A program made the position numbers and the translations under genes. Source: Geobacteraceae bacterium (GTDB lineage Bacteria > Desulfobacterota > Desulfuromonadia > Geobacterales > Pseudopelobacteraceae). From it: a DNA stretch of 64,000 bases. This document shows, one piece after another, positions 16,544 through 42,038 of the stretch (position 1 is its first letter; each line of letters opens with the position of its first letter). The notes beneath the pieces are model-generated. The model was given only the letters and a program-made list of their open reading frames with translations. It was not told the DNA's origin and ran no database searches. The stretch lies in contig JADKKR010000008.1 of the NCBI GenBank assembly GCA_016720395.1, positions 404 to 64,403 of the forward strand. The letters are read 5' to 3'.

Positions 16544-16587
16544 TTGACACGAATAATAATTTTGTTTATCTATAGTCTTAATAGATA
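16544..16587 (+). promoter_or_regulatory. rrf2 promoter with overlapping 21-bp palindromic operator
   Basis: TTGACA (16544-49), 17-nt spacer, TATCTA. Palindrome TATCTAT-N7-ATAGATA at 16567-16587 reaches the ATG, so the mRNA would be nearly leaderless. Confidence 0.6.
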
Positions 16588-22312: not shown

Positions 22313-22320
22313 GAACTCAG

Positions 22321-22364
22321 CGCGTGCGATTTCAGCCTTAACCTGAAATCGCACGCGTGTTTTA
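22321..22364 (+). terminator. rho-independent terminator
   Basis: 15-bp stem CGCGTGCGATTTCAG-ccttaac-CTGAAATCGCACGCG followed by TGTTTT. Confidence 0.8.
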
Positions 22365-22492: not shown

Positions 22493-23860
22493 ATGTCTGG
22501 AAAAATTGTAGCAATACTGGTGGGATGTTCTTTGCTTGCAGCAACTGTTCAGGCTAAGGATCATCCAGGAAAAGAATATGTTCTAAAAAATGGCTACCAG
22601 GGTCCAAAAACCTGTGAAACATGCCATCCGGGCAAAGCCAGGGAGTTTCTTGGAACCGTACATTGGAAACACGCCTCAAAAGTGGATCATGTAGACAATA
22701 TTAACCCGAATGAAGAGCATGGGATGAAAGATCGTATCTACACCATGTGTAACGGTAACGATATCGTCAATAACCTTAAGGAAGTGCCACCGAATGCTCT
22801 TGGCAAGACCAAATTTACCGGATGCAATACCTGCCATCCGGGGGATCATACAAGTGATGTCGGCAGTACCGGCCCCCAGGCGGAACAGGCCATAGACTGC
22901 CTGATCTGCCATTCCAGCAAGTATGACTTCAGCAAAAGAAAAGCGGTCAAGGATAAGGACGGCAAGGTTGTGATGACCCAGGACCGCAGTACCGAGGCAG
23001 CGGCCAACATCGGCCGGCCAACCATCAAGAACTGCATGATCTGCCACGAGGCTGCCGGCGGCGGTGCCATGATCAAGCGGGGATTTTCAATGGCAAAAGA
23101 CGCTGAGGTCCACGTTACCAAAGGCATCATCTGCATTGACTGTCATCAGGTGAAAAACCACAAGTTTCCCACCGGCCGTGATCCAAACAACTGGGCCCAT
23201 GACGGCATCTACATGACCTGTGTCGGTGAATGTCATAGTGCCAAGCCGCACAGTGATGCCGACTATAACAGGCATACTGCAACGATTGCCTGCCAGACAT
23301 GCCACATCCCCAAAACCGGGGGAGCCTTTTCCAAAGACTTCACCAAATGGGAAAAACAATCCAACGGGTTTTACGAGCCTTCTACCTTGAAGCGCGAGGT
23401 GAATGAAACCGCACCGGTATACGCCTGGTACAATCTGACCGTCAGCAATACCCCGCACTTTATCGGCCCCAAGGGTAGTAGAACTGATGGAAAGAGCAAA
23501 ATCTACCCATTCAAGATTTTCCAGGGCAAGGCATATTTCAACAAGAAAGACGGACAACTGCTCTCAATGGATTTTGCGCCGCCGATTGCAAACGGCGACA
23601 CCCTTGCCGGTGTGGCTTCTGCTGCCAGGATACTTGGAATCAAGGACTATGAACCGGTTCCGGGGTGGCAGACGATCTACTTTGGCAGCAACCATCAGGT
23701 TACACCAAAAAACAAGGCTTTGAACTGTGCCAACTGCCATGCGCTCAACGGCGTGCTTAATTTTAAAGAACTGGGATACAGTTCCAAGGAAGTGGAGCGG
23801 CTTACCAATCCTGAACTCTATTTTGAAAAACTGCTCAAGCTGCAGCAGGAGAACGAATAA
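22493..23860 (+). CDS. periplasmic octaheme-class c-type cytochrome
   Basis: Signal peptide. Seven CXXCH motifs (CETCH, CNTCH, CLICH, CMICH, CIDCH, CQTCH, CANCH) plus one CX3CH (CVGECH). Confidence 0.85.
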   Translation: MSGKIVAILVGCSLLAATVQAKDHPGKEYVLKNGYQGPKTCETCHPGKAREFLGTVHWKHASKVDHVDNINPNEEHGMKDRIYTMCNGNDIVNNLKEVPPNALGKTKFTGCNTCHPGDHTSDVGSTGPQAEQAIDCLICHSSKYDFSKRKAVKDKDGKVVMTQDRSTEAAANIGRPTIKNCMICHEAAGGGAMIKRGFSMAKDAEVHVTKGIICIDCHQVKNHKFPTGRDPNNWAHDGIYMTCVGECHSAKPHSDADYNRHTATIACQTCHIPKTGGAFSKDFTKWEKQSNGFYEPSTLKREVNETAPVYAWYNLTVSNTPHFIGPKGSRTDGKSKIYPFKIFQGKAYFNKKDGQLLSMDFAPPIANGDTLAGVASAARILGIKDYEPVPGWQTIYFGSNHQVTPKNKALNCANCHALNGVLNFKELGYSSKEVERLTNPELYFEKLLKLQQENE

Positions 23861-23903: not shown

Positions 23904-26102
23904 GTGTCACCCAAATTTTCTCGAAGGACATTTTTCAAGGTGTCAGGCGCAGCTACTGCCGGCTTGACCGTAGCGGCATCGGTACCGAAAAAGTTCCTAT
24001 CCTGGGCCGAAGAGGCCGGGCAGAAAGATATGAAACAGATTCCCACCTTCTGCGAACTCTGTTTCTGGAACTGCGGCCTTGTCGCCAAGGTGGAAAATGG
24101 CAAGGTCATCAAGGTCGATGGAAATCCACTCAGCCTGCGTGGCCGCGGCCGTCTCTGCGGCCGTGGCAATGCCGCACTGGGAGCGTTGTACGACCCGGAC
24201 CGGCTCAAGTACCCGATGATCAATACCGGCAAGCGCGGCGAGCCGGTCTGGAAACGGGCCACCTGGGACGAGGCGCTTGGTCTGATCGCCGAAAAAATGA
24301 ACGCTATCAAGCAAAAACATGGTGCCGAGTCCATGGCGCTCTTCTCACACGGAACCGGTGGGGCTTTCTGGAAACATCTGCTCAAGTCATATGGCTGTAG
24401 CAACTACACCGCCCCTTCGTTTGCACAGTGCCGCGGTCCGCGTGATATGGGTTTTTACCTGACCTACGGGTCAGACGTCGGATCGCCTGAATACTACGAT
24501 TTCAGCAAAAGCAAGTACATCGTCCTGCTTGGCTCGCATCTCGGTGAAAATGCCCATAACAGCCAGGTGCAGGACATCATGAACGGGTTGGCCGATGGCG
24601 CGCGTTTGACCGTGGTGGATCCGCGCCTCTCCAATATCGCCTCCAAGGCCGATCGCTGGCTGGCTATCAAACCTGCCAGCGACTTGGCGCTGCTTCTGGC
24701 CTGGATCAGGATCATTATTGAAGAGGGGTTGTACGACAAGGAATATATCGAAAAATACGCATCCGGATTCGATGAGCTGCGGGCTGCTGTTCAGCAGTAT
24801 ACTCCTGAGTGGGCCGAGGCCGAGACAACCATTCCGAGTGATACCATTGTCAAGGTGGCCCGCGAGATGGGCAGGAATGCACCTCATGTCTGTGTCGGTG
24901 CCGGCCGCTATGCTGTCTGGTATGGAGACGATACGCAACGCAGTCGTGCGATTGCGATACTCAACGCCCTGCTTGGTTCCTGGGGCCGTGAGGGGGGCTA
25001 TTTCTTTCCTGCCAAGGGTGGTGTGCCCGAATATCCAGGACTGCCGGAGTATCCACCCCACGCGGATGTGCCCAAGCTGGATGAAGCTTATCCGTTCGCT
25101 GCACTGCAGACAACGACTTCCATCAAGCATGCCTCAATCACCGGCAAGCCGCACCCGATCAAAGGGTGGTTCATCTACGGCTGCAACCTGATGAAGACCA
25201 TGCCGGACAAGCAGGAGACCATCAAGGCCCTGCAGAATCTTGAGCTCGTAGTCGCCATCGACGTTCTGCCGGCCGATATCATCGCCTGGGCCGATGTTGT
25301 CCTCCCGGAGTGCACCTATATGGAGCGCTACGATAATATCAACGTCGGCAAATTCAAGGATCTGGAGATCTCCCTGCGCCAGCCGACCATCGAGCCGCTC
25401 TGGGAGACCAAGCCATCCTGGTGGATGACCAAGGAACTTGGCGGCAAGCTTGGCCTGTCTGCCTACTTCCCCTGGAAGGACGGCGAGGAATATCTGGCCA
25501 AACGTTGTGAGGCGGGCGGCATCGATTTTGCCGAACTGAAGAAAAAAGGCGTCATAGTCAAGACAGACAAGTCGGCTCCCTACATAACCGATGAGAGTCA
25601 ACCGGAATTCGGGACCCCTTCCGGCAAGATCGAGCTGTATTCCAAGCAGCTGGAGGAGAAGGGTTTTGATCCCGTGCCGAAGTACACCAGGCATCCCCAG
25701 CCGCCGGCCGGCCACTTCCGGCTGCTGTTCGGGCGGTCGCCACTGCACACCTTCTCCCGGACAACCAACAATTTCATGTTGACCGACCTGCAGAAAGAAA
25801 ATGCACTCTGGATCAATACGAAAAAAGGGAAAGAACTGGGGTTAAAGGACGGCGAATATGTCTCGCTCGTCAATCAGGACGGGGTCAAGGCGCCCGGCCG
25901 GATCAAGGTCAAGCTGACCCAGCGTATGCGTGATGATGCCGTGTACATGTACCATGGCTTCGGTGTTCATGCCAAGGGTATGACCCGGGCCAACAATCAG
26001 GGGATAGCGGATGATGACCTGATTTCAAAATATGTCATTGACCCGATCATGGGCGGCACTGCCATGCGCGGGAATTTTGTCAAGATCGTGAAGGGGGCCT
26101 GA
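23904..26102 (+). CDS. Tat-exported molybdopterin oxidoreductase catalytic subunit, polysulfide/thiosulfate/tetrathionate reductase-like (PsrA/PhsA class)
   Basis: GTG start with RBS TAGGAGGTAA. Twin-arginine motif SRRTFFK. N-terminal FeS motif CELCFWNCG. 732 aa MopB pattern. Confidence 0.88.
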   Translation: MSPKFSRRTFFKVSGAATAGLTVAASVPKKFLSWAEEAGQKDMKQIPTFCELCFWNCGLVAKVENGKVIKVDGNPLSLRGRGRLCGRGNAALGALYDPDRLKYPMINTGKRGEPVWKRATWDEALGLIAEKMNAIKQKHGAESMALFSHGTGGAFWKHLLKSYGCSNYTAPSFAQCRGPRDMGFYLTYGSDVGSPEYYDFSKSKYIVLLGSHLGENAHNSQVQDIMNGLADGARLTVVDPRLSNIASKADRWLAIKPASDLALLLAWIRIIIEEGLYDKEYIEKYASGFDELRAAVQQYTPEWAEAETTIPSDTIVKVAREMGRNAPHVCVGAGRYAVWYGDDTQRSRAIAILNALLGSWGREGGYFFPAKGGVPEYPGLPEYPPHADVPKLDEAYPFAALQTTTSIKHASITGKPHPIKGWFIYGCNLMKTMPDKQETIKALQNLELVVAIDVLPADIIAWADVVLPECTYMERYDNINVGKFKDLEISLRQPTIEPLWETKPSWWMTKELGGKLGLSAYFPWKDGEEYLAKRCEAGGIDFAELKKKGVIVKTDKSAPYITDESQPEFGTPSGKIELYSKQLEEKGFDPVPKYTRHPQPPAGHFRLLFGRSPLHTFSRTTNNFMLTDLQKENALWINTKKGKELGLKDGEYVSLVNQDGVKAPGRIKVKLTQRMRDDAVYMYHGFGVHAKGMTRANNQGIADDDLISKYVIDPIMGGTAMRGNFVKIVKGA

Positions 26103-26103
26103 T

Positions 26104-27261
26104 ATGCGGCTATTCGGAGTTCTCATTCCTGAAAAGGAACAGCTTGTTGCCACAGCATCTGATGTCGTTAAAGGGAAAGCCGGCCTGACACTGTACGTAT
26201 CCCTGTTCGGTCTGGCGATCGGATTCTATGCCATCGCCGCCATCTTCATCAAGGGACATGCCCACACCATCAACACCTCCAACCTGGTGCCCTGGGGGAT
26301 GCAGATATCGACCTATATTTATTTTGCACTTCTCAGCACCGGCTGCACCTTTGTGAATTTTTTCGGCCACGTTTTCTTTGAAAAGCAGTACCGGCCATTT
26401 GCCTCGCGGATCATATTTGTCGGCATCATCACGGCGGTGGCAGCCTTCTTCTCCCTGGCAACCGAGATGGGGCATATCGAGCGGATGTACTACTTCCTGC
26501 TGTCACCAAACCCGAAGTCTCCCATGTTCTGGATGGCTATCTGGTACACCTGCTATGTGATCGCAATCACGTGGGAATACATAAATATCCAGAACAACAG
26601 GCATTCCAACAGGGTCATGTGGGGGGCTTTCTTTATCGCGATCTTTACCCATAGCACGCTGGGAAGCCTGCTTGGGTCGGTCAGTTCACGAGTCTACTAC
26701 TATAGCGCACTGATGCCGATCTACTTTCTGTTTATCGCCTTTCTGACCGGTTGCTCACTGACAACGATTATTGCCGCCCTTACGGTCAAACAGAAAAATC
26801 TGGACGAGAACTACCATCTGCATCCGTTTGTGACCTTGCTCAAGGTCGGTTTGGGACTGGCGCTGCTGATCACCTTCTGGCGAACCATGATCGGCCTGTC
26901 GGCGCACCTGGAGGGGTCCGAGGTGTTCTCTCTGACGCTGATCAACAGCGTGCTGTTCGGGATCGTGGTCGTCATCATGATCCCCTACTTCCTGCTCAAG
27001 ATGGGCAAGAGTGCCAACTGGCTGATCTTTGTAGGTCTGTTTATCATGGGAACCCAACTCAAGGCCCGTAACGACCTGGTTGTCGGCGCTTTCAAGATTC
27101 CGCTCTTCAGAGTTTATGACATGCCTGAGGTTGTGCACTACACGCCATCAATCTATGAGAATCTTGTTGTTGTGGCGTCCGCTTCGCTCGTGATGGTGCT
27201 GTATATTATTTTCGAACGATCAGGCGTTTTTGAGGCGCGGAACATCAAGGAGGACCACTGA
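26104..27261 (+). CDS. NrfD/PsrC-type integral membrane quinol-interacting subunit
   Basis: 385 aa, highly hydrophobic multi-span protein. Starts 1 nt after the MopB stop. Confidence 0.85.
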   Translation: MRLFGVLIPEKEQLVATASDVVKGKAGLTLYVSLFGLAIGFYAIAAIFIKGHAHTINTSNLVPWGMQISTYIYFALLSTGCTFVNFFGHVFFEKQYRPFASRIIFVGIITAVAAFFSLATEMGHIERMYYFLLSPNPKSPMFWMAIWYTCYVIAITWEYINIQNNRHSNRVMWGAFFIAIFTHSTLGSLLGSVSSRVYYYSALMPIYFLFIAFLTGCSLTTIIAALTVKQKNLDENYHLHPFVTLLKVGLGLALLITFWRTMIGLSAHLEGSEVFSLTLINSVLFGIVVVIMIPYFLLKMGKSANWLIFVGLFIMGTQLKARNDLVVGAFKIPLFRVYDMPEVVHYTPSIYENLVVVASASLVMVLYIIFERSGVFEARNIKEDH

Positions 27262-27263
27262 CT

Positions 27264-27981
27264 ATGGAACAGTTCGACGGTAAAGATATTCTGGAGATCA
27301 TGCACGCTGATCTGCAGCGGGCCTTGAAAAAACCGCGTAAAGAGCGTCGCTGGGCCATGGCGATCGATCTGAAGAAGTGTATCGGCTGCCATGCCTGCAC
27401 CACCGGCTGCATGTCCGAAAACCTGACCCCGCCCGAGATCCACTATCGTCCTGTCAAGGAAGAGGAGATCGGTGAGTTCCCCAATACCGGCATTCGATTT
27501 CTGCCGCGTCCCTGCTTTCAGTGCGATTCGCCGACCTGCACCCCGGTCTGCCCGGTGACCGCCACCTATAAACGGGACGATGGCCTGGTTGTCATCGATT
27601 ACAAAAGGTGCATCGGCTGCCGCTACTGCATTGTCGCCTGTCCCTACGGGGCCCGTTCAGCAGATTCGGGGCATTACTATACCGGAGATTTTCATGACAA
27701 GACCTACGAGGTGGAGAACTCAGGCGAGTACGGCGAAACGTTCAAGCGCAAGAGTCACTGGCACTCTCCGATCGGTAATGCCCGCAAATGCCATTTTTGC
27801 ATCCATCGCGTGGAAAAGGGGGAACTGACCCGCTGTACGACCACCTGCCTGGGCAGTGCCACCTACTTCGGTGACATCAATGATCCCGCATGCGCTGATA
27901 ACAAAGCTGATATCAAAGCCGAACGTTTTTCGATACAAGGAAGAGATGGGAACAAAGCCGATGGTGTACTACATACCCTAG
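27264..27981 (+). pseudogene. 4x[4Fe-4S] ferredoxin subunit (PsrB-like) with a +1 indel near 27885-27887
   Basis: Four Cys clusters (CIGCHACTTGC, CFQCDSPTCTPVCP, CIGCRYCIVACP, CHFC...CTTTC). After GDINDP the family C-terminus ...LITKLISKPNVFRYKEEMGTKPMVYYIP* continues in the next frame, ending at TAG 27979-27981. Confidence 0.8.
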
Positions 27982-28043
27982 CACTGATGGCCCGACGGAG
28001 TCGGCAGGCATCGTTGCAGAAAAATTGCTGTGGAGGAGGGATT

Positions 28044-28388
28044 ATGAGGCTGAAATCAATCTGGCTGTTGGCAGCATTACCGGTGTTGCTGTGCGGAATT
28101 GCTTACGGCGCAGCCATGCAGGACATCATCTATAAGGGCGATAAGGCCACGGATGAGGCCATATTCCATGGAGACAAGCATCTGAAGAGGGGCTTTACCT
28201 GTAATGACTGCCACAACAGGGAGATGTTCCCGAAAAAGGAAAAAGGGGCAACGGTCATAACCATGAAGGCCATCCAGCAGGGTAAACTCTGTGGGAAATG
28301 CCATAACGGGAAGATTGCATTCGGGATCGACCATCACTGTGACAGGTGTCACCCACGGAAAGGTCCTGACACGCTCATTTATGACTGA
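28044..28388 (+). CDS. triheme cytochrome c7/c3-family protein
   Basis: Own RBS GGAGGAGGG and signal peptide MRLKSIWLLAALPVLLCGIAYGA. CNDCH, CGKCH, CDRCH. Hidden inside track ORF 27264-28388. Confidence 0.8.
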   Translation: MRLKSIWLLAALPVLLCGIAYGAAMQDIIYKGDKATDEAIFHGDKHLKRGFTCNDCHNREMFPKKEKGATVITMKAIQQGKLCGKCHNGKIAFGIDHHCDRCHPRKGPDTLIYD

Positions 28389-28859: not shown

Positions 28860-30695
28860 ATGCGGCTATCTGCATTAATCATATCACTGCTTGCCTGCCT
28901 GGTCTCTGCCTGTACGCTGACGGATAGTAACCGCTCGACTTGTCTCAGTTGCCATAATGCACTGGAGCATGCCTCGCCGGCTCATGACGACTGTGTCAAC
29001 TGTCACGGCGGCGATCCAAAGGCACGTAATAAAGGCACGGCTCATGCCACCATGCGCGGACCGGCCAATCCATCGGCACCCGATACCTGGGAAGAAGCCT
29101 GTGGCCGCTGTCACCGTTATCAGTTAGAGCGGGTCAAATCGACGATCATGCAGACCAATGCCGGTATGATCCGCAATGTCCAGCTGACCTGGGAGGGTGA
29201 GGATGGACGTACATATACCACCACCGGCGGAAAACAGTTTGCTGCCGACGGCCAACCGGTAGAGTTTGCTGCCGTTGAGGACCTGGACAATCTGTCCGGA
29301 GAGCTGTATCGCAAATTCTGCTCCCGTTGCCACGTCGGCTCCAGCAATGCAGAGTCATACGGTGCCGCCCATGCATCCGGTTGTGCGGCCTGCCACTTTC
29401 CGTGGAACGATACGGCCACGTACCAGGGGCGTGACAAAACCATGAAGGGCCGGGCCGGCCATTCTGCCAGCCATGCCATGATTGCACTTCCCGACACACA
29501 GGTGTGCTCGCGCTGCCATAACCGAAGCGGCCGGATCGCAATCTCGTATCAGGGGCTGTATGACGGCAACAATGGGCTGGTTCCCACCAGCGGCGGGGAG
29601 GGGGGACCGCTGATGACCAGTGGCGCCCGTAACCTGACCAGCATCGCTCCCGACGTGCACTTTGCCGCCGGCATGGAATGTATCGACTGTCACACCTCGC
29701 GAGATGTCATGGGTGACGGTTTTGCCTATCGCAACATGTACCTGCAGACGGAGGTCGCCTGCGAGGACTGCCACGGCAGCGGCAGCCAGGTGCCGCGTTA
29801 CCGTGAGACAGTCCGCGAGAATGAAGAATCACTGCGGGAGTCAAAGGGGTACAAGCAGCCTGCGACGTCCGGCATGAAAATGATCCAGACATCCAAAGGG
29901 CGCAGCTACTCCAACGTATTCTACCGCGATGGTGCGGTCTGGCTGCAGGGGAAGCGCAGCGGCAAACTTCATCGCAGCAAGGTCATTACCGGCACACCGG
30001 AGCATACCATTGCCGGCCATGGACGTCTGGAATGCTATGCCTGCCATTCGCACACATCGGTACAGTGCTACGGCTGCCATACCCGCTACGACAAGGGAAA
30101 ACGCGGTATGGACTTTATCAAGGGCGAAGAGACTGCCGGGTTCTTCAGCGAGACCGAGGACTACCGCATGCTCTATCCCTTTCCACTGGCACTCAATCAG
30201 CGAGGCCGCATCTCGCCGGTCACGCCCGGTTGCCAGACCTTTGTTACCGTGGCAGAGGCTGACGGCACACAATCCAAGACGGAATACGTCGCTAAATTTA
30301 AAGGCAGGCAGCAGCTTCGCTTTGCCCCGTTCTATTCTCACAACACCGGTAAAAAATCTGTCGGCTGTTCAGAGTGCCACGGCAATCCTCAATTTTTAGG
30401 TTTCGGTCAGCATATTGTCGAAGGAAACAGCATCAAAGGGACCCTGATCTGTGAACGTTCCGACAGCAAGCCGCTGGACGGCTTCCTGAGCATGGACAGG
30501 GGGCGGGTCACTGCATATTCTGCGATAACCCGCGAGAACGCCCGTCCGATGAATGCCTCCGAGATAAAACGGGCGCTGTCCGTAAACCTCTGCCTGCCCT
30601 GCCATTCCAAGGCAGGCGACCGGATCTACCGGAAAGGAATAAATCTGCGTGCATTGGATGACTCCCTACATCGCCGGCTTCTGTCTGCTCCTTAG
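28860..30695 (+). CDS. dodecaheme c-type cytochrome lipoprotein
   Basis: ATG 28860. Lipobox LVSAC. Twelve CXXCH motifs. The track TTG start at 28809 lies inside the preceding hairpin. Confidence 0.85.
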   Translation: MRLSALIISLLACLVSACTLTDSNRSTCLSCHNALEHASPAHDDCVNCHGGDPKARNKGTAHATMRGPANPSAPDTWEEACGRCHRYQLERVKSTIMQTNAGMIRNVQLTWEGEDGRTYTTTGGKQFAADGQPVEFAAVEDLDNLSGELYRKFCSRCHVGSSNAESYGAAHASGCAACHFPWNDTATYQGRDKTMKGRAGHSASHAMIALPDTQVCSRCHNRSGRIAISYQGLYDGNNGLVPTSGGEGGPLMTSGARNLTSIAPDVHFAAGMECIDCHTSRDVMGDGFAYRNMYLQTEVACEDCHGSGSQVPRYRETVRENEESLRESKGYKQPATSGMKMIQTSKGRSYSNVFYRDGAVWLQGKRSGKLHRSKVITGTPEHTIAGHGRLECYACHSHTSVQCYGCHTRYDKGKRGMDFIKGEETAGFFSETEDYRMLYPFPLALNQRGRISPVTPGCQTFVTVAEADGTQSKTEYVAKFKGRQQLRFAPFYSHNTGKKSVGCSECHGNPQFLGFGQHIVEGNSIKGTLICERSDSKPLDGFLSMDRGRVTAYSAITRENARPMNASEIKRALSVNLCLPCHSKAGDRIYRKGINLRALDDSLHRRLLSAP

Positions 30696-31854
30696 TTCGG
30701 AGGCTATGGCTGCACACGGCGGACTTGTGTGTGGATCCTGTCACCGCCCGCCCGGAGGTTCTGTTGTAACGGCTGTTCGTGCAGCCTCAAGCCTGGCAGA
30801 TGGTTGTGTCGTGTGCCACAGGGGCTATGGCAGGATCTTTGATCAGTCCATGGCGCACAGGAAGGGTGAAAAGCAGTTTGTTCAGCGCAGCTATGCACGT
30901 GTTGATTCGGGATTCTGGGAGAAGAATTGCAGTTCCTGCCACCTCAAGAGCTGCCTGGACTGCCACGACGAAGGTGAACCGAAAAAACCGACCGTGGCGG
31001 CATGCCAGAGATGTCACAAAGGATACTATACCGGTTGGGACTACTCGGGTCGGGCTCCCCGGGAAGACAATATGCGTTATCAGCGCGGTCTCGCCATCAA
31101 TGACGAGACCTTCCTGAAAATGCTGCCTGATGTTCATTCACGGGCCGGATTGACCTGCGGCGACTGCCACTCCATGAGCAGTCTGTCGCAGGGGAAAAAA
31201 TCATCAAAGGGCTGTATCGACTGTCACAAACCGGATTTGAAGATTCTTGAACACCGGATATCAGTTCATATGGAGCGTCTGGAGTGTTACGCCTGCCATT
31301 CAGCCTGGGGAGCTCAGGAATACGCCACATTTTTTCTCCGGTTCCGCGACCCGAAGATGAAAGAAGACTTTGACCTCAAGGCCGGTCCAAGCGAAGATTA
31401 CCTGCGCAGTTCCTACCTCAGGAAGCAGGATGCGCCGCCGCTCGGCATTAACGACAGGGGGCGCATCAGCCCGATCAGGCCACTGTTTATCGCCTACTAT
31501 ACCGATATCATGTCGGCCCGCAACGGTGGCCCGGAGAACACACTGCTGGTCGCTGAGTGGCGTGCCTGGTTTCCGCATACGGTCCAACGCGGCAGCGTGA
31601 CCTGTGAGCGGTGTCATGATAACCCGGCCCGGTTCCTGCTGGAACCAGAGGCCGGTCGTATCTTTCAGCTGAAAAAGGACCGTCTGCAGTTAGAATCGTT
31701 CTGGGTCCAGGAAGGCCAGCGGATGGTCAACGGCAGTTTTATGTCCGCCAACCGCTATCTAAGGATGAGCAGCAAGAGCCCGGCCTACACAAAGGCATAC
31801 ATCGAAAAATGGAAAACATTGCTCAATCACGTCGAAAATTCATCACGACCCTAA
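30649..31854 (+). CDS. nonaheme c-type cytochrome
   Basis: Signal peptide ...LLLSSEAMA. Nine CXXCH motifs. GTG 30649 (alternative ATG 30658). Confidence 0.85.
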   Translation: MHWMTPYIAGFCLLLSSEAMAAHGGLVCGSCHRPPGGSVVTAVRAASSLADGCVVCHRGYGRIFDQSMAHRKGEKQFVQRSYARVDSGFWEKNCSSCHLKSCLDCHDEGEPKKPTVAACQRCHKGYYTGWDYSGRAPREDNMRYQRGLAINDETFLKMLPDVHSRAGLTCGDCHSMSSLSQGKKSSKGCIDCHKPDLKILEHRISVHMERLECYACHSAWGAQEYATFFLRFRDPKMKEDFDLKAGPSEDYLRSSYLRKQDAPPLGINDRGRISPIRPLFIAYYTDIMSARNGGPENTLLVAEWRAWFPHTVQRGSVTCERCHDNPARFLLEPEAGRIFQLKKDRLQLESFWVQEGQRMVNGSFMSANRYLRMSSKSPAYTKAYIEKWKTLLNHVENSSRP

Positions 31855-32204
31855 CCCTGGCCTCTGTTTCGCTGGGCTTACTCTGGCGCTACCTGTCGCC
31901 GCCGGCCGTTTCGCGCCGCCGGGTTGTGGCACGGGTACCCAGGACGGATATACCGGCCGAAGGAGCACTGGTCTTTCTACAGGAACGGCTGGCGCTGATG
32001 CGGGAAGGTGATACAATCTTCGCTCTGGACCTGGTCTGTACCCACCTGGGGTGCACCGTGACGGTCACCGGCAGCGGGTTGTCCTGCCCCTGTCATGGCA
32101 GTCGCTTCGACCGGCAGGGGAGAGTGCTGAACGGGCCGGCTGACCGTCCTCTGGGCAGGCTGAAGGTTGAGGAGCATGACGGGATGATCGAGGTCGTGAC
32201 ATAA
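31809..32204 (+). CDS. Rieske [2Fe-2S] protein
   Basis: Tat-like SRRKFI, then CTHLGC and CPCHGS boxes. Confidence 0.9.
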   Translation: MENIAQSRRKFITTLTLASVSLGLLWRYLSPPAVSRRRVVARVPRTDIPAEGALVFLQERLALMREGDTIFALDLVCTHLGCTVTVTGSGLSCPCHGSRFDRQGRVLNGPADRPLGRLKVEEHDGMIEVVT

Positions 32205-32824
32205 TGGTATCTGACTTTCTCAAACATCTCTTTCCCCGCGTGGTGCTGGAACGGAACCTGCGCCTCAGCTACACCTTCTGCCTGGGGGGGCTGGCCTTCA
32301 GCGCTTTTCTGGTTATGCTGGCCAGCGGGATGCTGCTGCTGGTCTATTACCAGCCGACACCGGAGCGGGCCTTCAATTCGATCCTGTTCCTGGAATCAGC
32401 GGTGTGGGGCGGTAAATACCTGCGCAGTCTGCACCGCCTGACATCTCATTTTCTGCTGATCCTGCTGTTTCTCCATATGCTCCGTGTTGTCCTGACCGGC
32501 GCCTATCAGCGCCCGCGCCAGCTTAACTGGGTTATCGGCATGCTCCTGCTGCTGCTGTGCGTCTTCGAGGCCTATACCGGTTACCTGCTCCCCATGGACC
32601 AGCTGGCCTACTGGGCCACCCAGACCGGCATGGAACTGCTGCTGACCGCTCCCTTCGGGGGCTTTGTCCGTGCATTGCTGGTGCCGGACGGCGTCGGTCA
32701 GCCGCTGTCACTGCTGCGTTTCTATGCCCTGCATGTCGTGGTGGTCCCGCTGTCGGTATCACTGCTTTCCCTGCTGCATTTCTACCGGGTCAGGAAAAAC
32801 AAGGGGGTGCTTCCCTACCTATGA
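32204..32824 (+). CDS. cytochrome b6-type (N-terminal four-helix) cytochrome b
   Basis: 206 aa. Paired His in helices (LHRLTSH / LHML ; ALHVV / LLHFY). TAATG overlap with the Rieske gene. Confidence 0.88.
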   Translation: MVSDFLKHLFPRVVLERNLRLSYTFCLGGLAFSAFLVMLASGMLLLVYYQPTPERAFNSILFLESAVWGGKYLRSLHRLTSHFLLILLFLHMLRVVLTGAYQRPRQLNWVIGMLLLLLCVFEAYTGYLLPMDQLAYWATQTGMELLLTAPFGGFVRALLVPDGVGQPLSLLRFYALHVVVVPLSVSLLSLLHFYRVRKNKGVLPYL

Positions 32825-33231
32825 AAACCGGATTCGTCAAAAGCTCCCCGCACTTTTTCCAACTGATCAGCCGCTCCTTCTGGCTGCTGATGACCGTCCT
32901 GCTGGCGCTGGCGGCATTTGTCCCGGCCCCGCTGCAGACTGCCGCCGACCCGTCCTCTACCCCTAATCCGGTCAAATCGGCCTGGTTCCTGTTGTGGATT
33001 CAGGAGCTGGTCAGCTGGTCGCGTTTCATGATCTGGCCGGTGCTGCTGCTGTGTCTCGCCTGCTTTCTGCTTCCCTGGCTGCCGGGACAGGTGCGCGGTC
33101 ACCATGCCAGCTGGCTGCCGCCGGGCCAGCGGCTGATTTCGATCAGTACGATCCTGGTCACTGCAGCGCTGCTGCTGCTTACCGTCATAGGTCTGTATTT
33201 TCGGGGGGCGGATTGGTCGCTGGTTTTCTGA
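32821..33231 (+). CDS. subunit IV-like (cytochrome b C-terminal domain) membrane protein
   Basis: ATGA overlap with cyt b6. Three hydrophobic spans. SAWFLLWIQEL occupies the position of the PEWY-type motif. Confidence 0.7.
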   Translation: MKTGFVKSSPHFFQLISRSFWLLMTVLLALAAFVPAPLQTAADPSSTPNPVKSAWFLLWIQELVSWSRFMIWPVLLLCLACFLLPWLPGQVRGHHASWLPPGQRLISISTILVTAALLLLTVIGLYFRGADWSLVF

Positions 33232-34052
33232 CTATCATAGCGGCGGCAGCCATGGTTACTACACCTGCAAGTGGCCTGGCTTCCCGGCAGCTCTGCCAGT
33301 CATGCCACCCTGACCATTACGTCGAGCGCGGTGTCTGCACCAGCTGCCACCGGGGTAACCCTGCCTCCGGCCGCCGGAATATCGCCCACCAGCAGCTGAT
33401 CGCCGGACGCTACGCCGCCTTTACCCTTGGCGACACACAGAAACTCCGGACCGGTGAGCGCCTCATCGATCTTTATGCCTGCCGGCGCTGCCATGTCATC
33501 GGCGATCGGGGGAACCGGCTCTCGGCCAATCTGGACCGGTCGTCGGCCCGCAGGGCGCCCGGTGAGATGACCGAATCCATCTTGAACCCGGTAAAAAATA
33601 TGCCTGATTTCCGCATGGAGAAGCAACAGGCTGTCCTGCTGGTGAACGCTCTGCTGGCGGCATCCAGCCGTCAGAAGGCTGCTTCCGGTGGGCAACGCCA
33701 GGTTGTTCATTTTGATCGCACCGGCACGGCAGGGGAGGATGTCTTCAGCAAAAAGTGCGGATCATGCCATCGTGCACTGACGTCAGGTCTGGGCGGTTTG
33801 GGACTGGGCGACGCGGGACCGAATCTGTCGGGCCTGTTGTCACCGTCTTATCCGGAAACATTCAAAGACAGGTACCGCTGGACAGAGCGCAATCTGGAGA
33901 ACTGGCTGAAGAATCCCCGGCGGATCAGGCCACAGAGCCGGATGCAGCCGGTTCAGTTGACAGAGCTTGAATTCAGGCAACTAACGGATATACTTACAGT
34001 GAAACAACCTCAAAAAAAACAACAGGAGGGTCAAGGCCGAGCGTTATTTTGA
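33213..34052 (+). CDS. membrane-anchored tetraheme c-type cytochrome
   Basis: CQSCH, CTSCH, CRRCH, CGSCH. A TTG 33213 start gives an N-terminal anchor MVAGFLTIIAAAAMV; alternative ATG 33252. Confidence 0.78.
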   Translation: MVAGFLTIIAAAAMVTTPASGLASRQLCQSCHPDHYVERGVCTSCHRGNPASGRRNIAHQQLIAGRYAAFTLGDTQKLRTGERLIDLYACRRCHVIGDRGNRLSANLDRSSARRAPGEMTESILNPVKNMPDFRMEKQQAVLLVNALLAASSRQKAASGGQRQVVHFDRTGTAGEDVFSKKCGSCHRALTSGLGGLGLGDAGPNLSGLLSPSYPETFKDRYRWTERNLENWLKNPRRIRPQSRMQPVQLTELEFRQLTDILTVKQPQKKQQEGQGRALF

Positions 34053-34230
34053 TGCGGTGCCACAGCGGCAGAAACAGGTTCGTAGGTACCTGCCGGCCCC
34101 TTCAGTATGGACCGCAGTACCTGCATGGCATCACGTGTTGTTTCGGCTGTTCCGTTTTCAGCCGGCTGGGTGGCGACAAGAGACATATACGGTGTCTGGT
34201 CTAACCGTTAAAAGATTCCGGAAATTTCAG

Positions 34231-34260
34231 TTGACATTATATTTTTAATATATATTATAA
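34231..34260 (+). promoter_or_regulatory. putative sigma70 promoter of the RND operon
   Basis: TTGACA, 17-nt AT-rich spacer, ATTATA. Overlaps the near-palindrome TTTTTAATATATATTATAAAAA. Confidence 0.4.
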
Positions 34261-34285
34261 AAAATATGTATTGAAGGAGCTATAT

Positions 34286-35626
34286 ATGATCAACCATGTT
34301 CTTGTCATCATCACGCTGGTCCTGTGTGCAAATATCGCCGTGGCAGAAACCTACCGCCTCAGTCTCAAAGATGCCATTGCTCTGTCACTGGACAGGAACA
34401 ATCTGGTGCGGTCAGCAGGTTTTGCTGCTGACGCCGCACGCCAGGATGTCGCGATAACCACGGCCCGTTACTATCCGGGGGTTTTCTTTGAGGAAGCCTT
34501 CGTCGCATCGAATGCGCCCACGCAGACCTTCATGATGAAACTTGATGAAGGTAGATTTTCCCAGAACGATTTCCAGATCGACAACCTCAACCATCCGCAG
34601 ACCAGTCATGACTTCAGGACCGCCCTGACAATCCAGCAGCCGATCTACAATCCGTCAACATCGCCGGCCAGGGAGATGGCAGTCAAGGAGTCTGAAAAGC
34701 AGACCTTGGCTTACGATGCGGGCAAGGAGGATACCGCCTTCCAGGTCTTCCGGCTCGTTCTGGAGGTGCAGAAGTCAAAAGCACAGCTGCGTGCCGTTGA
34801 GCAGGCCCTTGGAGACGCACGGGAGAATAAGCGCCTGGCAGCGGTTCGCACCGGAGCAGGGGTGGGGCTGAAGTCTGACGAACTCAGGGCACGAACGCAT
34901 CTTGGCTCGGTCGAGCAGCAGTTCATAACGGCCGGCAACAATCTGATGCTGGCCAGGATGCAGCTGGCGAACGTGGTCGGCCTCAAGGAAGGCGACAGCA
35001 TCGATATTACTGAATCCATCATCCCTCTTACTTCAGGCATGCCTCCCGAAGAGCTGGTCAAGGTGGCGCTGGAAAGCAGGAAAGACCTGAAGCAGTCCAT
35101 GGTTGAGCTTGAAAAGAGTGATGCCGCTCTCCGGCTTGCGCGGAGTGGTTACCTGCCTTCTGTCGGGTCATTTGCAACCTACCAGATGAATTCAAAGGAT
35201 ACGCCCTTCGGCTCTGATAACGATTCATGGATTGCCGGCATCAGCCTCAAGTGGCAGCTGTTCGACGGATTCAAGCGCTACCATGAGAAGGATCGCGCAG
35301 TTGCAGCACGTTCCGCTGCGGCAGAGTTGCTGGAAGCCAGGCTGCGCGAGGTCAGGTACCGGGTCAGGGAAAGTGTCATGCGGCGCGAGGAAATGGGCAA
35401 GCGACTGGAAGTGGTGCGGAATTCCCTGGAGGATGCCGAAGAAACCGTGCGGCTCCTGACCAGGCGCTTTGAGAATTCTCTGGCCACCATGGTCGAGCTG
35501 CTGGACGCACAGACGGCACTGAATCAGGTGCGGGCAGGGCTGGTGGAGTCCGAGGCAAACTACTCTCTGGCCGGCGGTAATGTGTATTATTCTGCAGGGA
35601 TATTCATGAAGGAGATGCTGAAATGA
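34286..35626 (+). CDS. TolC-family outer membrane efflux protein
   Basis: RBS GAAGGAG, signal peptide, two-repeat TolC pattern. Confidence 0.85.
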   Translation: MINHVLVIITLVLCANIAVAETYRLSLKDAIALSLDRNNLVRSAGFAADAARQDVAITTARYYPGVFFEEAFVASNAPTQTFMMKLDEGRFSQNDFQIDNLNHPQTSHDFRTALTIQQPIYNPSTSPAREMAVKESEKQTLAYDAGKEDTAFQVFRLVLEVQKSKAQLRAVEQALGDARENKRLAAVRTGAGVGLKSDELRARTHLGSVEQQFITAGNNLMLARMQLANVVGLKEGDSIDITESIIPLTSGMPPEELVKVALESRKDLKQSMVELEKSDAALRLARSGYLPSVGSFATYQMNSKDTPFGSDNDSWIAGISLKWQLFDGFKRYHEKDRAVAARSAAAELLEARLREVRYRVRESVMRREEMGKRLEVVRNSLEDAEETVRLLTRRFENSLATMVELLDAQTALNQVRAGLVESEANYSLAGGNVYYSAGIFMKEMLK

Positions 35627-36736
35627 AAAACAGATTCCTGTTGGCCACCTTTCTCATGGCAGTATTCATGTTCGCCGGCTGCAGCAAGAAGAACTCTACC
35701 GATGAGACGAAAGCCGCCGTGCCTGCGGCTGTGGTGAAAGGGGTTCTGACAGAAACCGTCAAAACCGCCTCTGTCCCTGAAACCATGGAGGTCGTGGGCA
35801 CAGTCCGTGCCCGAACCAGCGCAGTGGTTTCTGCACGCATATCCGGTGTTGTCAGCCTGCTGAAGGTACGGGAAGGTGACCGGGTAAAGAAGGGACAGCT
35901 GCTTGCGCAGCTCGATGCCCAGGAGAATCAGGCGCATGCCGCTGGAGCGGCCGCAGGGGTCGAGGAAGCCGGGCGCGGCCTGGATGAAGCTCTGTCACGT
36001 AAACGGCTGTCTGATGCAACCTTCGAACGCTATCAGAACCTCTTCAAAGAACAGGCTATTACCCGCCAGGAATTCGATGTCAAGCAGACGGAACGCGATC
36101 TGGCCTCTCAGGCGGTTGCGCGTGCCGAAGCCCGTCTGCAGCAGGCCCGGGAAGGATCGCGGGCTGCATCCGCCATCGCCGGCTATACCAGGATCGTAGC
36201 CCCGCTTTCGGGTATCATAACCAGCAGGCAGGCTGATCTGGGTGCCACGGTATTTCCGGCCCAGCCGTTGATGACGATTGAAGACGAGGGGAGCTACCAG
36301 CTTGAACTGTCGGTGCCGGAGTCGATTGCGCTCTCCGTGAAACCGGGTACAGCCGTTCACGTTACACTGGATGCCGTGAATACATCGTTCAAGGCAAAGA
36401 TCGCCGAAACAGTACCCTCTACTGATCCGGCCAGCCGCACCTTCATCGCTAAAATCCTGTTGGATCAAAAAGGACTCAAGTCCGGTATGTTCGGCCGGTG
36501 CCCTGAGCCTGGGAACCAGTGTCAACGGCACGCTGGTACCAAGGAAGGCCATTGTAGATCGGGGTGCTCTGACATCGATCTGGATCGTTGAAAAAGACGC
36601 CACCGCCCGGATGCGGTTAGTGAGGATCGGCAAAACCGTCGGTGACAGGGTGGAGATTCTTTCAGGCCTCTCCGATGGTGAGCGCATTGTTGTCGATGGC
36701 GTAGAGAAAGTCAGCGAAGGGTCAAAGGTGGAATGA
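35623..36736 (+). pseudogene. RND efflux periplasmic adaptor (MFP) lipoprotein, one frame break near 36497
   Basis: Lipobox FMFAGC. After ...SGMFGR the conserved tail ALSLGTSVNGTLVPRKAIVDRGALTSIWIV...EGSKVE* continues in the +1 frame to TGA 36734-36. Confidence 0.85.
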
Positions 36737-36739
36737 GTC

Positions 36740-39700
36740 ATGGCCAACCTCGGCTTTGCAGGTAAAATTGCCCGCGCATTCATAAACTCGAAACTGACCC
36801 CGCTGATCGTAGGAGCATCCTTATTGCTGGGGCTCTTTGCTGTCAAGATGACCCCCCGCGAGGAAGAACCGCAGATCGTGGTGCCCATGGTGGATATCTA
36901 CCTCCCCATGCCCGGTTCCACCCCGCAGGAGGTTCAGGAGCGGGTAGTCAAGCCTTTGAGGCCAAATTGTGGGAGATCAAGGGGGGTCGAGTACCTCTAT
37001 TCCATGAGCCGGCCGGGCATGGGGATTATCACCGTGCGCTTCCTGGTGGGACAGCCGATGGAGGAGTCGCTGGTCAAGCTCTACAACAAGGTCATGAGCA
37101 ATCGCGGCGTTCTGCCGCCGGGTGCCGGTGAACCGCTGGTGGTGCCGAAGTCCATCGACGACGTGCCGATCATGGCCCTGACGCTCTGGTCGGAACGTTA
37201 TGACCATGGCACCCTGCGTACCCTGGCCAGGGAAGTGGCCGATGAACTGAAGAAAAGCGAAAACAGCGCTGAGGTGGAGATCAAGGGAGGGCTGCCCCGC
37301 CAGCTGCGGGTGACTCTGGATGCCCCTCGTCTGGCCGGTTACGGTCTGTCCCCGCTGCAGGTGGCGGGAGCCCTTCAGAAGGGTAATGCTTCTCTGCCGT
37401 CGGGGTCATTTTCCGGTGCCGACAAGGAAACCACCGTGGTGACCGGCGGCTTCCTTGACAGTGCCGATGCGGTAGAGCGAACGGTAGTTGGGGTCTACGG
37501 CAACAAGCCGGTCTACCTGAGTGACGTTGCGCAGATCCAGGACGGTGTTCAGGAACCGGAGGATTATGTCTTCATGGGCATGGGACCGGGAGCCGCCCAT
37601 AAGAAGCTCACCGGGAAACCCCGGCAGGACTATGCTGCGGTGACTATCTCCGTGGCAAAGAGGAAGGGGGCCAACGCCACCTGGGTAGCCGAGGACCTGG
37701 TAAGAAAGGTCGAGTCACTCAAGGGCAAGGTGATCCCCTCCGATGTGCAGGTAACGATCACCCGCAACTACGGCGAGACCGCCAAGGAAAAGAACAATGA
37801 GCTGCTCTTTCACATGTTCCTGGCTGCCATCTCGGTCACGATCCTGATTGCGGTCTTCATGGGCTGGCGCGCAGGAGCAGTAGCCGCCATAGCCATCCCG
37901 GTCACCCTGGCGTTGACCATGCTGATCTTCTACCTGATCGGCTACACCCTCAACCGGATCACGCTCTTCGCCCTGATCTTCTCCATCGGCATTCTGGTGG
38001 ACGACGCCATCGTGGTGGTAGAGAACATCCACCGCTACTTTACCACTACGGTAATGAAGCCGCTGGATGCCGCCATCAAGGCGGTGGATGAGATCGGCAA
38101 CCCCACGATGCTGGCCACTTTTGCCGTCATTGCCTCGATCCTGCCCATGGGGTTCGTGGGCGGCCTGATGGGCCCCTACATGCGCCCGATACCGGTCGGT
38201 GCCAGCATGGCCATGCTTTTCTCCATGCTGATAGCCTTTATCGTCACACCATACTTTGCCTTCCGTTTCACGAAGGGCGAGTCCCACCACGGCTCAGGTG
38301 AGGCACCGGAGGATTCCCGGCTTACGGCCTTTACCGTCTCTGGATGGGGCGCCTGATCCACGAGAAGGGTCTGCGCTACGGTTTCCTGTCCGCGGTGGTG
38401 GTCATGCTGCTGCTCTCCTGTTCCCTGATCCTGTTCAAGGCCGTGACGGTCAAGATGCTCCCCCTTCGACAACAAGAACGAACTGCAGGTGATCATCGAT
38501 GCCCCGGACGGAACGTCGCTGGAGCAGACCGCCCGCATAACCCGCGAGATGGGCGATGCCCTGCGTACGGTGCCGGAGGTGACTGATTTCCAAATGTATA
38601 TCGGTCCAGCGCCCCGTTCAATTTCAACGGCCTGGTGCGTCATTATTACCTGCGCAAGGGCTCGAATCTGGCAGACATTCAGGTCAACCTGCTGCCCAAG
38701 GATCAGCGCAAGGATCAGTCCCACGCCATAGCCAAGCGCATCCGCCCGCTGGTCAAGTCCATCGCCGACAGGCATGGCGCCCGGGTCAAGGTGGCCGAGA
38801 TTCCCCCCGGCCCGCCGGTACTCTCCACGCTGGTAGCCGAGATCTACGGCCCTGATGATGCCAGCCGCCGGCATTGCCGGCAAGGTCAGGATATTCTCAC
38901 CCGGACCGCCGGCGTTGTTGATGTGGATATGTACCGTGAAGATGATCAGAAGAAAGTCACGTTTGCCGTGGACAGTGAAAAAGCAGCCCTCTCGGGCATT
39001 GCAAGAGGATGTCGCCCGTACACTATCCATCGCCCTGGGAGGACAGAATACCGGCATGCTGCATCTGCCCAGGGAAAAGGAGCCGGTCTATATACATCTC
39101 CGCCTGCCTGCCGGACAACGCAGTTCTGTGGCCGATCCTCGTCGATCCAGGTCCCGGGTCAGAAGGGAGTGTTCCGCTCTCCCAGCTGGTGAAGGTATCG
39201 ACAGGCAGCGAAGAGAAGACCCTTTACCGTAAAAACCTGAAGAACGTAGTCTATGTCATCGGTGATGTGGCCGGTGAGATCGAGGCCCCGGTCTATGCGA
39301 TCCTCAAGATGCAGAAAGAAATTGCCGACCTGCCAACCCCGGACGGCTCGAAGATCGAAGTCCTGGCATCCCGGCAGCCTTGGAGCGAGGAAAAGATGGG
39401 CATGAAGTGGGACGGTGAATGGCACATCACCTACGAGGTATTCCGTGATCTGGGCATCGCTTTCGGTGCGGTTATGGTGCTGATCTATATCCTGGTGGTG
39501 GCCTGGTTCAAGGATTTCACCACACCGCTGGTGATCATGGCCCCCATTCCGCTGACCCTGATCGGTATCCTGCCTGGCCATGCCATGTTCGGCGCCTTTT
39601 TACCGCCACTTCCATGATAGGCTTCATCGCACTGGCAGGGATCATTGTGCGCAACTCGATTATCCTGATCGATTTTGCCGAGATGAAACGTCGCGAGGGA

Positions 39701-39950
39701 ATGGCCCTGGACGAGGCCATAATAGAAGCCGGCGCGGTGCGTTTCCGCCCCATGCTGCTGACAGCCGCAGCAGTGGTGGTGGGAAGTTTCGTGATCGTCT
39801 TCGACCCGATATTCCAGGGCCTGGCCTGGCCATGATGTTCAGGAGATTGCATCGACCACCCTTTCCCGTGTTACAATCCCATACTGTATTATATGGTACA
39901 GAGCTGGAAAGAGCGGCACCATGCAGGAGAACCAAAAGGAGACGATGTGA
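36740..39950 (+). pseudogene. RND (AcrB/CzcA-like) inner-membrane efflux pump, at least 13 frame breaks
   Basis: Continuous RND-like sequence can be stitched from track ORFs 36740, 38344, 38489, 38635, 38855, 39009, 39614 and 39580. Breaks near 36954/36984, 38325, 38462, 38604, 38866/38889, 39000, 39137, 39167, 39598, 39826 and 39841. The 3' end is uncertain. Confidence 0.85.
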
Positions 39951-39994
39951 TTTTCTGGTCGAAAAAAGCAAAACCTTCACTGGAAGGAATGGAA

Positions 39995-40375
39995 ATGGCT
40001 GAAATATGCCAGCTGGAGGCTGAGGCGCTCTACCGGTCCGGCAGGTACCACTGTGCAGAAGCGGTACTGGAGGTCGTCAGGAAGCACTTTTCGCCCGGGA
40101 CGCCGGAGTCGGTGGTGGGAACGGTGTCAGGATTCGGCGGCGGTTCGGGGCCGGATGTGTCTGCGGTGCGGTGTCGGGTGGCACGGTCGCGCTGGGAATG
40201 GTGCTGAACGATAAAAAAGCTACCACGCACCTGACCAAGGAACTGCATACCTGGTCTCAAGGAGAAGTACGGAGTCACCTGCTGCAAGACCATCCGCCAG
40301 ACCCACAAAGGGGCCTGTCCGGTCCTGACCGGCGAGGTGGCGGGGAAAGTGGCCGAGATGCTGGGAAGAAAATAA
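39995..40375 (+). pseudogene. C_GCAxxG_C_C family redox-type protein, two frame breaks (~40151, ~40255)
   Basis: MAEICQ...YHCAEAVL...GFGGGSG | GCVCGAVSGGTVALG...HTW | KEKYGVTCCKTIRQTHKGACP...GRK*. RBS GGAAGGA. Confidence 0.7.
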
Positions 40376-40408
40376 AAAGCGAACACTTTTCGCAATATCT
40401 GCGCATAT

Positions 40409-40470
40409 CTTCAGGATTCCTTGTGCGGCGTAGCGTTGCTAGGCCTCCGCGCAATCCTTGACATCCTTGA
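40409..40470 (+). repeat. REP/MITE-like element, copy 1
   Basis: CTTCAGGATTCCTTGTGCGGCGTAGCGTTGCTAGGCCTCCGCGCAATCCTTGACATCCTTG. Related copies at 47724-47795 (inverted) and 48770-48840. Confidence 0.75.
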
Positions 40471-40546
40471 TCTTGCGAAAATTGCCCACTTCTGGAAAAT
40501 GGAATGGCTTGATCTGCTGTAAATTTTTTATAAAGGAGACGTACAT

Positions 40547-40789
40547 ATGAAAGAAGAATTCTACATCGAGCGCATTGTCCGTATCGTGGCCGGGACGTTT
40601 GTCATGATCTCGCTGCTGCTGGCGCATTTCCACTCGCCCAACTGGCTCTGGTTCACCGGCTTCGTCGGGCTTAACCTGTTCCAGTCCGGCTTCACCCAGT
40701 TCTGCCCGATGTTCAACATTCTGGCTAAAATGGGTGTGCCCCGTTTCCCGAAGAGTACGTGCTGTAAAATAAACCCCCCAAATTTTTAA
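40547..40789 (+). CDS. DUF2892 (YgaP-like) small membrane protein
   Basis: [18 protein letters not shown]...[19 protein letters not shown] pattern. Confidence 0.75.
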
Positions 40790-41658: not shown

Positions 41659-41660
41659 CG

Positions 41661-42036: not shown

Positions 42037-42038
42037 GC

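Follow-up and report, generated by a model that had tools for sequence, protein, structure and literature searches.

The 64,000-nucleotide stretch of a Geobacteraceae bacterium that is analysed here (the window; assembly GCA_016720395.1, contig JADKKR010000008.1) carries on its forward strand six consecutive genes for two large multiheme cytochromes, a Rieske protein, the two parts of a split cytochrome b and a tetraheme cytochrome c (table 1). Judging from profile scores and gene order, they are almost certainly the ExtMNOPQS (or Cbc6) module of Geobacter-type bacteria. The module is not new: It is already named and curated, and the genes of the window are the orthologues of GSU2935-GSU2930 of Geobacter sulfurreducens. 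An initial annotation, made from the DNA letters and their open reading frames, had seen here a split Rieske/cytochrome b complex of the b6f kind embedded behind 12-heme and 9-heme cytochromes. This reading is supported by the ranking of structural matches, the heme-ligand histidines, the domains of ExtS and the overlaps between the genes, and the two cytochromes upstream do carry 12 and 9 CxxCH motifs.

Table 1. Features of the ExtMNOPQS locus and its immediate context (positions in the window)
Feature	Position	Strand	Description
ExtM orthologue	28860..30695	+	Dodecaheme c-type cytochrome, probable lipoprotein (lipobox LVSAC)
ExtN orthologue	30649..31854	+	Nonaheme periplasmic cytochrome; signal peptide, AMA|A
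ExtO, Rieske [2Fe-2S] protein	31809..32204	+	131 residues, twin-arginine translocation (Tat) signal/anchor
ExtP, cytochrome b6-type N-terminal half of cytochrome b	32204..32824	+	206 residues, 4 transmembrane helices
ExtQ, subunit-IV equivalent (cytochrome b C-terminal part)	32821..33231	+	136 residues, 3 transmembrane helices, SAWF
ExtS orthologue, tetraheme cytochrome c	33213..34052	+	2 N-terminal hemes and 2 class I (His/Met) domains
Context, outside the six-gene module	23904..28388	+	Psr/Phs-like molybdopterin subunit, NrfD membrane subunit, 4Fe-4S subunit with triheme c7 domain
Sigma-70-like promoter match, best of the region	34231..34258	+	11/12 consensus positions; consensus match only

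The assignment follows from the dedicated NCBIfam models. ExtM (NF040943, cytoc3_ExtM, 1021.5 bits against a cut-off of 800), ExtN (NF040967, cytc_ExtN, 576.1 against 200), ExtQ (NF040970, memb_ExtQ, 169.9 against 150) and ExtS (NF040971, cytc_ExtS, 333.9 against 100) all score above their thresholds. ExtP reaches only 227.5 bits with NF040969, under the cut-off of 290, and its orthology is deduced from its position and from its 57-84% identity to the ExtP proteins of full clusters. The identical order of six genes was found in 10 genomes of the class or phylum, with 37-84% identity between the proteins, and again in most of 80 further loci; the loci showing it include L033, L034, L036-L041, and L043. 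The remaining NCBIfam model of the series, NF040968 (FeS_ExtO), gives 583 bits on the nonaheme ExtN (30649-31851), over nearly the same span as the ExtN model, and no match to the Rieske protein of the window (31809-32201); it seems to have been built from ExtN-like sequences, leaving the real Rieske ExtO without an equivalog.

In the description of Jahan et al. (2018, PMC5877670), ExtMNOPQS comprises two cytochromes with 12 and 10 hemes, a Rieske protein, a cytochrome b, a "membrane protein" and a lipoprotein with 4 hemes. The same set is named Cbc6 or CbcMNOPQR in the Geobacter literature (bioRxiv 10.1101/2021.04.15.440034; PMC13591261) and counts among the six candidate inner-membrane quinone oxidoreductase clusters of G. 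sulfurreducens. The initial annotation considered the physiological partners of such complexes as not established, in agreement with a 2026 review according to which the "specific physiological roles remain unknown" for Cbc6 (PMC13591261). Two Rieske/cytochrome b complexes were reported for Geobacter species by Baymann et al. (2012, PMC3509893); in one of them the seven-helix cytochrome b is split, has the cysteine for heme ci and groups with the b6f-like "green clade". The present genome fits this picture, since it carries, in addition to the Ext module, a second Rieske/cytochrome b set on contig C1 (L046:6421-8766, minus strand), composed of a Rieske protein of 139 residues, an unsplit cytochrome b of 367 residues and a multiheme cytochrome of 270 residues; subunit IV is recognisable in the C-domain of this cytochrome b, whose motif is PEWY. 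An apparent second copy of ExtN-S on contig C16 was rejected, being a 96.6%-identical, indel-ridden duplicate of positions 30488-42547 of the window. The two sequences (L045:1-12000 for C16) differ by 192 gap positions, and frame shifts break every gene of C16, which looks like an unpolished duplicate or assembly artefact rather than a paralogue.

The six genes overlap at all five junctions. ExtM and ExtN share 47 nucleotides (nt) if ExtN starts at GTG 30649, or 38 nt if it starts at ATG 30658, while ExtN and ExtO share the 46 nt (31809-31854) that had been noted before; the TAATG between ExtO and ExtP (1 nt) and the ATGA between ExtP and ExtQ (4 nt), likewise in the initial annotation together with the lengths of the 206- and 136-residue products, are confirmed, and ExtQ overlaps ExtS by 19 nt given the probable TTG start of the latter at 33213. 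No strong terminator-like hairpin was found between 22358 and 34052. These overlaps, with the lack of a strong internal terminator, indicate that the six genes form a translationally coupled single unit, and the overlaps with the upstream cytochrome genes speak against an independent transcription of the Rieske/cytochrome b genes, in line with the linkage originally proposed. The promoter-like site downstream falls in the 218-nt gap between ExtS and a TolC-like gene and likely marks the downstream end of the transcription unit. At the other end, ExtM-S may be co-transcribed with the upstream Psr-like genes. A 16-pair hairpin at 22320-22358, lying 3' of a heme-rhodanese gene, is the sole strong terminator-like site in the 18-36 kilobase (kb) region; it would split the porin, ExtJ and rhodanese genes from what may be an 11.6-kb transcript that extends from an octaheme cytochrome to ExtS.

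With respect to the redox core, ExtO matches Pfam PF00355 (E value 3.4e-13) and its top NCBIfam matches are the PetC models of b6f complexes. The protein is minimal in size, but the boxes CTHLGC and CPCHGS recognised by the initial annotation are present; CTHLGC and CPCHGSxF, with their disulfide cysteines, and the RR motif of the Tat signal do not vary among 10 orthologues. ExtP matches PF00033 (E value 2.8e-35) and the cytochrome b6 model PRK03735 (162 bits); its top PDB matches are cytochromes b6, with 122-138 bits, and the other cytochromes b among the matches listed reach at most 93 bits. The initial annotation had proposed to look for the four heme-ligand histidines on a proper alignment, and all of them are there: H77, H91, H177, and H192 align with His86, His100, His187, and His202 of cytochrome b6 (1q90_B), with the b6 spacing (helix B, 13 residues; helix D, 14), and none of them varies among 12 orthologues. 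Equally invariant in these 12 proteins is C26, within FCLGG, which aligns with Cys35 of b6, the heme-ci cysteine; ExtP thus carries a predicted heme-ci-binding cysteine of the CxGG type.

The nature of ExtQ is concealed from standard models: How can a subunit IV be recognised if it does not match subunit IV? The protein gives an E value of 0.0097 with Pfam PF00032, below the model cut-off, and searches of PDB chains with the single sequence or with a 12-sequence profile returned no match; its AlphaFold2 model is poor (predicted local distance difference test, pLDDT, 62.6), and Foldseek with that model found nothing. The answer comes from relatives in the phylum, in which the ExtQ model matches 90 of 401 genomes. 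In at least 13 of the 17 Desulfobacterota relatives examined, an ExtQ-like segment lies in frame directly behind a cytochrome b N-domain, the rest being split. Because of this fusion ExtQ can be identified as a cytochrome b C-terminal domain, and the likeness of the 136-residue protein to subunit IV, suspected by the initial annotation, is borne out. The fused relatives read PNPxKAPWYF..QE (one of the 17 has APWF), the 12 ExtQ orthologues invariantly PNPxKSAWFLLWxQE, and hhalign aligned SAWF, weakly (E value 0.11), to the PEWY of the other cytochrome b of the genome. The predicted Qo motif of ExtQ is SAWF, derived from APWY and devoid of an acidic residue. ExtO, the four-helix diheme ExtP and the three-helix ExtQ (4 and 3 hydrophobic helices predicted) are therefore best described, on alignment and predicted topology, as a b6f-type quinol-oxidising core.

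The cytochromes around this core add up to 25 c hemes, 12 in ExtM, 9 in ExtN, and 4 in ExtS. ExtM is 58-73% identical to the orthologues in the same position of 10 genomes, and its single N-terminal hydrophobic segment is followed by the lipobox, as expected for the dodecaheme lipoprotein of the initial annotation. The N-terminus of ExtN is too short to include the first heme motif, which 7 of 10 orthologues have, and for this reason the module has 25 rather than 26 c hemes. PDB sequence searches with ExtM and ExtN found no relative, and the cross-matches of their NCBIfam models reveal a common C-terminal domain. ExtS is also matched by Pfam Cytochrome_CBB3 and Cytochrom_C, and its C-terminal domain by mitochondrial-type c, c2, c552, and cy cytochromes in the PDB. 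The motifs of its class I domains, CRRCH...MPxF and CGxCH...M.P, recur in 10 orthologues, and these two conserved His/Met domains make it a plausible substitute of cytochrome c1 or f. The start of ExtS is deduced from the N-termini of its orthologues, in a frame that is open from 32994. The initial annotation had described an anchored tetraheme cytochrome in place of c1 or f; the four CxxCH motifs and the place hold, but not the anchoring, for the protein has an N-terminal signal-like segment with an AxA-like GLA|S site and neither a C-terminal helix nor a lipobox. Matches of ExtS by tblastn in L034 (around 15951-16679) and L041 (around 3245-4003) span an in-frame stop codon.

Compared with the cluster of G. 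sulfurreducens, the same six genes stand in the same order, with 9 hemes instead of 10 in ExtN, no lipobox in ExtS and an ExtP under the model cut-off; upstream lie a Psr-like molybdoenzyme and an octaheme cytochrome, not the selenoprotein ExtKL (MccSep). The b6f complexes of cyanobacteria and chloroplasts (PetC, PetB, PetD, and PetA) likewise have a cytochrome b split into 4+3 helices with a 13/14 histidine spacing, and share with the Ext proteins the CxGG heme-ci cysteine and a Tat-type Rieske protein with CTHLGC and CPCHGS. However, Ext has SAWF in place of PEWY, its ExtQ goes undetected by PetD models, and the tetraheme ExtS with 21 more hemes replaces cytochrome f. Neither cytochrome f (PetA) nor PetG, PetL, PetM, or PetN was found in the operon, the small subunits having been searched there and not elsewhere in the genome. 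Moreover Geobacter is a menaquinone-type anaerobe, unlike the organisms with b6f complexes. Related complexes of Desulfobacterota and others belong to the APWY clade (Kao and Hunte 2014, PMC4122944), with ExtQ 26-41% identical to their C-terminal domain, in which PNPxK-x-x-W-[YF]...QE is common to both, and ExtP 37-48% identical to their N-domain; they too have a Rieske gene next to the cytochrome b gene, and in some members an ExtS-like cytochrome comes after it. Most members of this clade are unsplit and have APWY, whereas Ext is split and has SAWF in 12 of the 12 orthologues examined. The Rieske/cytochrome b complex of Kuenenia, an anammox bacterium, is also split, with a heme-ci cysteine and multiheme c subunits in one operon (PMC3509893), but the six-gene module includes neither an octaheme subunit resembling hydroxylamine oxidoreductase nor an NAD(P)-linked flavoprotein, in a comparison that considers the accessory cytochromes by gene content and not by homology.

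What lies next to the module varies. In the window, the slot occupied by ExtKL in Geobacter is taken by the Psr-like set (PhsA model 534.6 bits; NrfD; Fer4_11 with Cytochrome_C7), preceded at 22493-23860 by an octaheme cytochrome of the octaheme tetrathionate-reductase (OTR) family. ExtKL was found neither in this genome nor in three related genomes with ExtQ orthologues, and the ExtH-ExtI-ExtJ-ExtKL adjacency of G. sulfurreducens does not occur at the locus. A porin-like protein (18634-20424) has no NCBIfam match at an E value of 1e-5, including porin_ExtI, a model that gives 717 bits with ExtI from canonical clusters; the porin-like protein is 71% identical, over 69% of its length, to the copy that is cut off at the edge of L036. 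Scanned by pattern, species-representative genomes yielded 235 relatives of ExtP, the best 80 of which are 66-92% identical and belong mostly to Geobacterales, Desulfuromonadaceae, Geomonas, Citrifermentans, Geotalea, and Geopsychrobacteraceae, some being labelled Desulfobacterales. Neighbours were classified at the 55 loci with at least 8 kb of upstream flank. The full module, with Rieske, ExtN, and ExtM upstream of ExtP, is present in 45 of these: ExtKL lies beside ExtM in 17 and a Psr-like set, as in the window, in 15, but the two are never found together (0 of 55), while 7 full modules adjoin only rhodanese and/or porin genes and 6 adjoin nothing that was recognised. ExtM is missing at 3 loci, ExtPQS stands alone at 6, and 1 locus, with an ExtN-like match only, remained unclassified. 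Altogether the module adjoins rhodanese, ExtI porin, ExtKL, or Psr-like genes at 42 of the 55 loci. In a FastTree phylogeny of ExtP orthologues rooted on APWY relatives, read without regard to branch supports, the ExtKL type is basal, the window falls in a derived clade without ExtKL, and Psr-like genes appear at two further places.

The loci with ExtPQS alone (L051, L052, L056, L073, L092, and L094, from Geobacterales or Desulfuromonadaceae) have an ExtP that is 73-86% identical to that of the window (73% in L092), at about 10001-10618 (8624-9241 in L056); no Rieske, ExtN, or ExtM gene was found within their 8.6-10 kb of upstream flank. In L092 a gene for a NikR-like regulator lies directly upstream of ExtPQS.

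In functional terms, we lean towards considering the module as a menaquinol:multiheme-cytochrome oxidoreductase with a Q-cycle core that would feed periplasmic reductases of sulfur and selenium compounds; for the direction of electron flow and the identity of the partner, taken by themselves, the balance is even. The cofactor-binding residues, topology, gene coupling, and synteny are those reported above; the direction of flow, the route from Rieske through ExtS to ExtN and ExtM, and the partners we infer as follows. Menaquinol would be oxidised at a Qo site formed by ExtP, the SAWF loop of ExtQ, and the Rieske head. The first electron would leave the 2Fe-2S cluster for the two class I heme domains of ExtS, in replacement of cytochrome c1 or f, then to its other two hemes and on to the 21 hemes of ExtN and the lipid-anchored ExtM, while the second would cross the membrane through the b hemes in Q-cycle fashion. 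The multihemes would finally hand electrons to the reductases encoded next to them: In most Geobacter relatives the acceptor may be the polysulfide/selenite reductase MccSep, and in this genome the c7-tagged Psr-like molybdoenzyme, perhaps also the OTR-family cytochrome. MccSep, which is ExtKL, is a selenocysteine-containing pentaheme polysulfide reductase that is essential for the respiration of elemental sulfur (S0) with an "unidentified electron donor" (PMC13510729), and selenite reduction is reported, as a preliminary observation, to be impaired when cytochrome genes that lie downstream of extI are disrupted (PMC5877670). The presence of two unrelated types of polysulfide reductase in one slot is, as far as gene neighbourhoods can tell, the best available hint that the module serves sulfur or selenium respiration.

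This picture needs to be qualified, since several points weigh against it. In the 401-genome sample of the phylum, 42 genomes have an ExtKL and 11 an ExtQ above the respective cut-off, and the two occur together in 6, including G068, which has the full cluster with ExtQ under the cut-off. Hence 36 of the 42 genomes with ExtKL have no ExtQ orthologue and MccSep normally works without the complex; the complex is thus no universal donor of MccSep, and as the present genome, conversely, has the complex without ExtKL, the idea of a dedicated donor is weakened as well. With an NrfD quinol subunit of its own, the Psr-like enzyme need not depend on the complex, the SAWF motif without the usual acidic residue does not guarantee ordinary Qo chemistry, the 6 loci with ExtPQS have no Rieske gene nearby, and no experiment on any ExtM-S protein was found in the literature. 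Energetics add a further difficulty. The polysulfide/sulfide couple lies at about -260 mV. Rieske clusters of the menaquinol type lie at about +120 mV (PMC4122944). It follows that polysulfide is thermodynamically disfavoured as the end acceptor of the Rieske branch, for which selenite, tetrathionate, or Fe(III) would be more suitable.

The uphill step would disappear if electrons flowed the other way, from the periplasmic cytochromes through the complex to the menaquinone pool in a reverse Q cycle assisted by the proton-motive force, with sulfide, polysulfide, or thiosulfate oxidation by the neighbouring enzymes, a syntrophic partner or a cathode as the source. Reverse flow into the quinone pool has been stated for Cbc6 (PMC10553843) and a reverse Q cycle proposed for another Geobacter bc complex, beside p-cresol methylhydroxylase (PMC4122944); the enzymes encoded nearby could in principle work in either direction (OTR family, Psr/Phs family, TsdA-like chemistry). 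Yet the adjacent ExtKL acts as a reductase in the S0 respiration of G. sulfurreducens (PMC13510729), the transfer from class I c hemes to menaquinone costs energy, and none of the sequence features tested indicates a direction, so that we regard reverse flow as doubtful. The thermodynamic problem of the ordinary route from menaquinol to polysulfide could also be circumvented by quinol-based bifurcation, in which Rieske and ExtS would serve a high-potential acceptor (tetrathionate, selenite, or Fe(III)) whose pull would let the low-potential electron of heme bL reach polysulfide via ExtM and ExtN. The class I His/Met domains of ExtS differ from the c3/c7-type motifs of ExtM, ExtN, and the ExtS N-terminus as such a division would have it, the cluster has possible reductases of high (OTR family) and low (Psr-like) potential, and a similar proposal exists for the anammox Rieske/cytochrome b complexes. 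However, no sequence feature bears on bifurcation, the retained heme ci and bH sites suggest a normal Qi side, and we know of no Rieske/cytochrome b complex in which it has been demonstrated; we consider it highly improbable, even if, were it true, it would account for the presence of a Rieske complex beside sulfur reductases in an anaerobe with menaquinone only.

Alternatively, the module might serve extracellular metal reduction in general, as an inner-membrane quinol oxidase comparable to ImcH, CbcL, and CbcBA, its sulfur and selenium neighbours being incidental. The listing of Cbc6 among the candidate quinone oxidoreductases of G. sulfurreducens is in favour of this possibility, as is the higher abundance of ExtN and ExtQ with Fe(III) oxide in proteomic studies cited in PMC5877670. 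But a double mutant of imcH and cbcL cannot reduce Fe(III) oxide though its Cbc6 is intact, and deletion of extHIJKL causes no defect with Fe(III) oxide or electrodes (PMC5585712); the frequency with which the module adjoins rhodanese, porin, ExtKL, or Psr-like genes also argues against incidental neighbours. A general role in metal reduction is therefore unlikely.

In conclusion, the locus is the known cluster with local variation, namely a Psr-like enzyme for ExtKL, nine hemes in ExtN, and an ExtP under its cut-off. To this knowledge the present analysis adds the identification of ExtQ as a cytochrome b C-domain with SAWF, the mutual exclusion of ExtKL and Psr-like genes at 55 loci and the occurrence of MccSep mostly without the complex. 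Few cytochrome sets are conserved across Geobacter relatives, and this module is one of them; in August 2026 its usual upstream neighbour ExtKL/MccSep was proven to be a polysulfide reductase essential for sulfur respiration (PMC13510729). The link between the two has a limit, as most MccSep-bearing genomes of the phylum do not have the complex. The alternation of MccSep and Psr in one slot, with the frequent rhodanese and porin genes, makes the complex a candidate for linking menaquinone to sulfur and selenium respiration in Desulfuromonadia.

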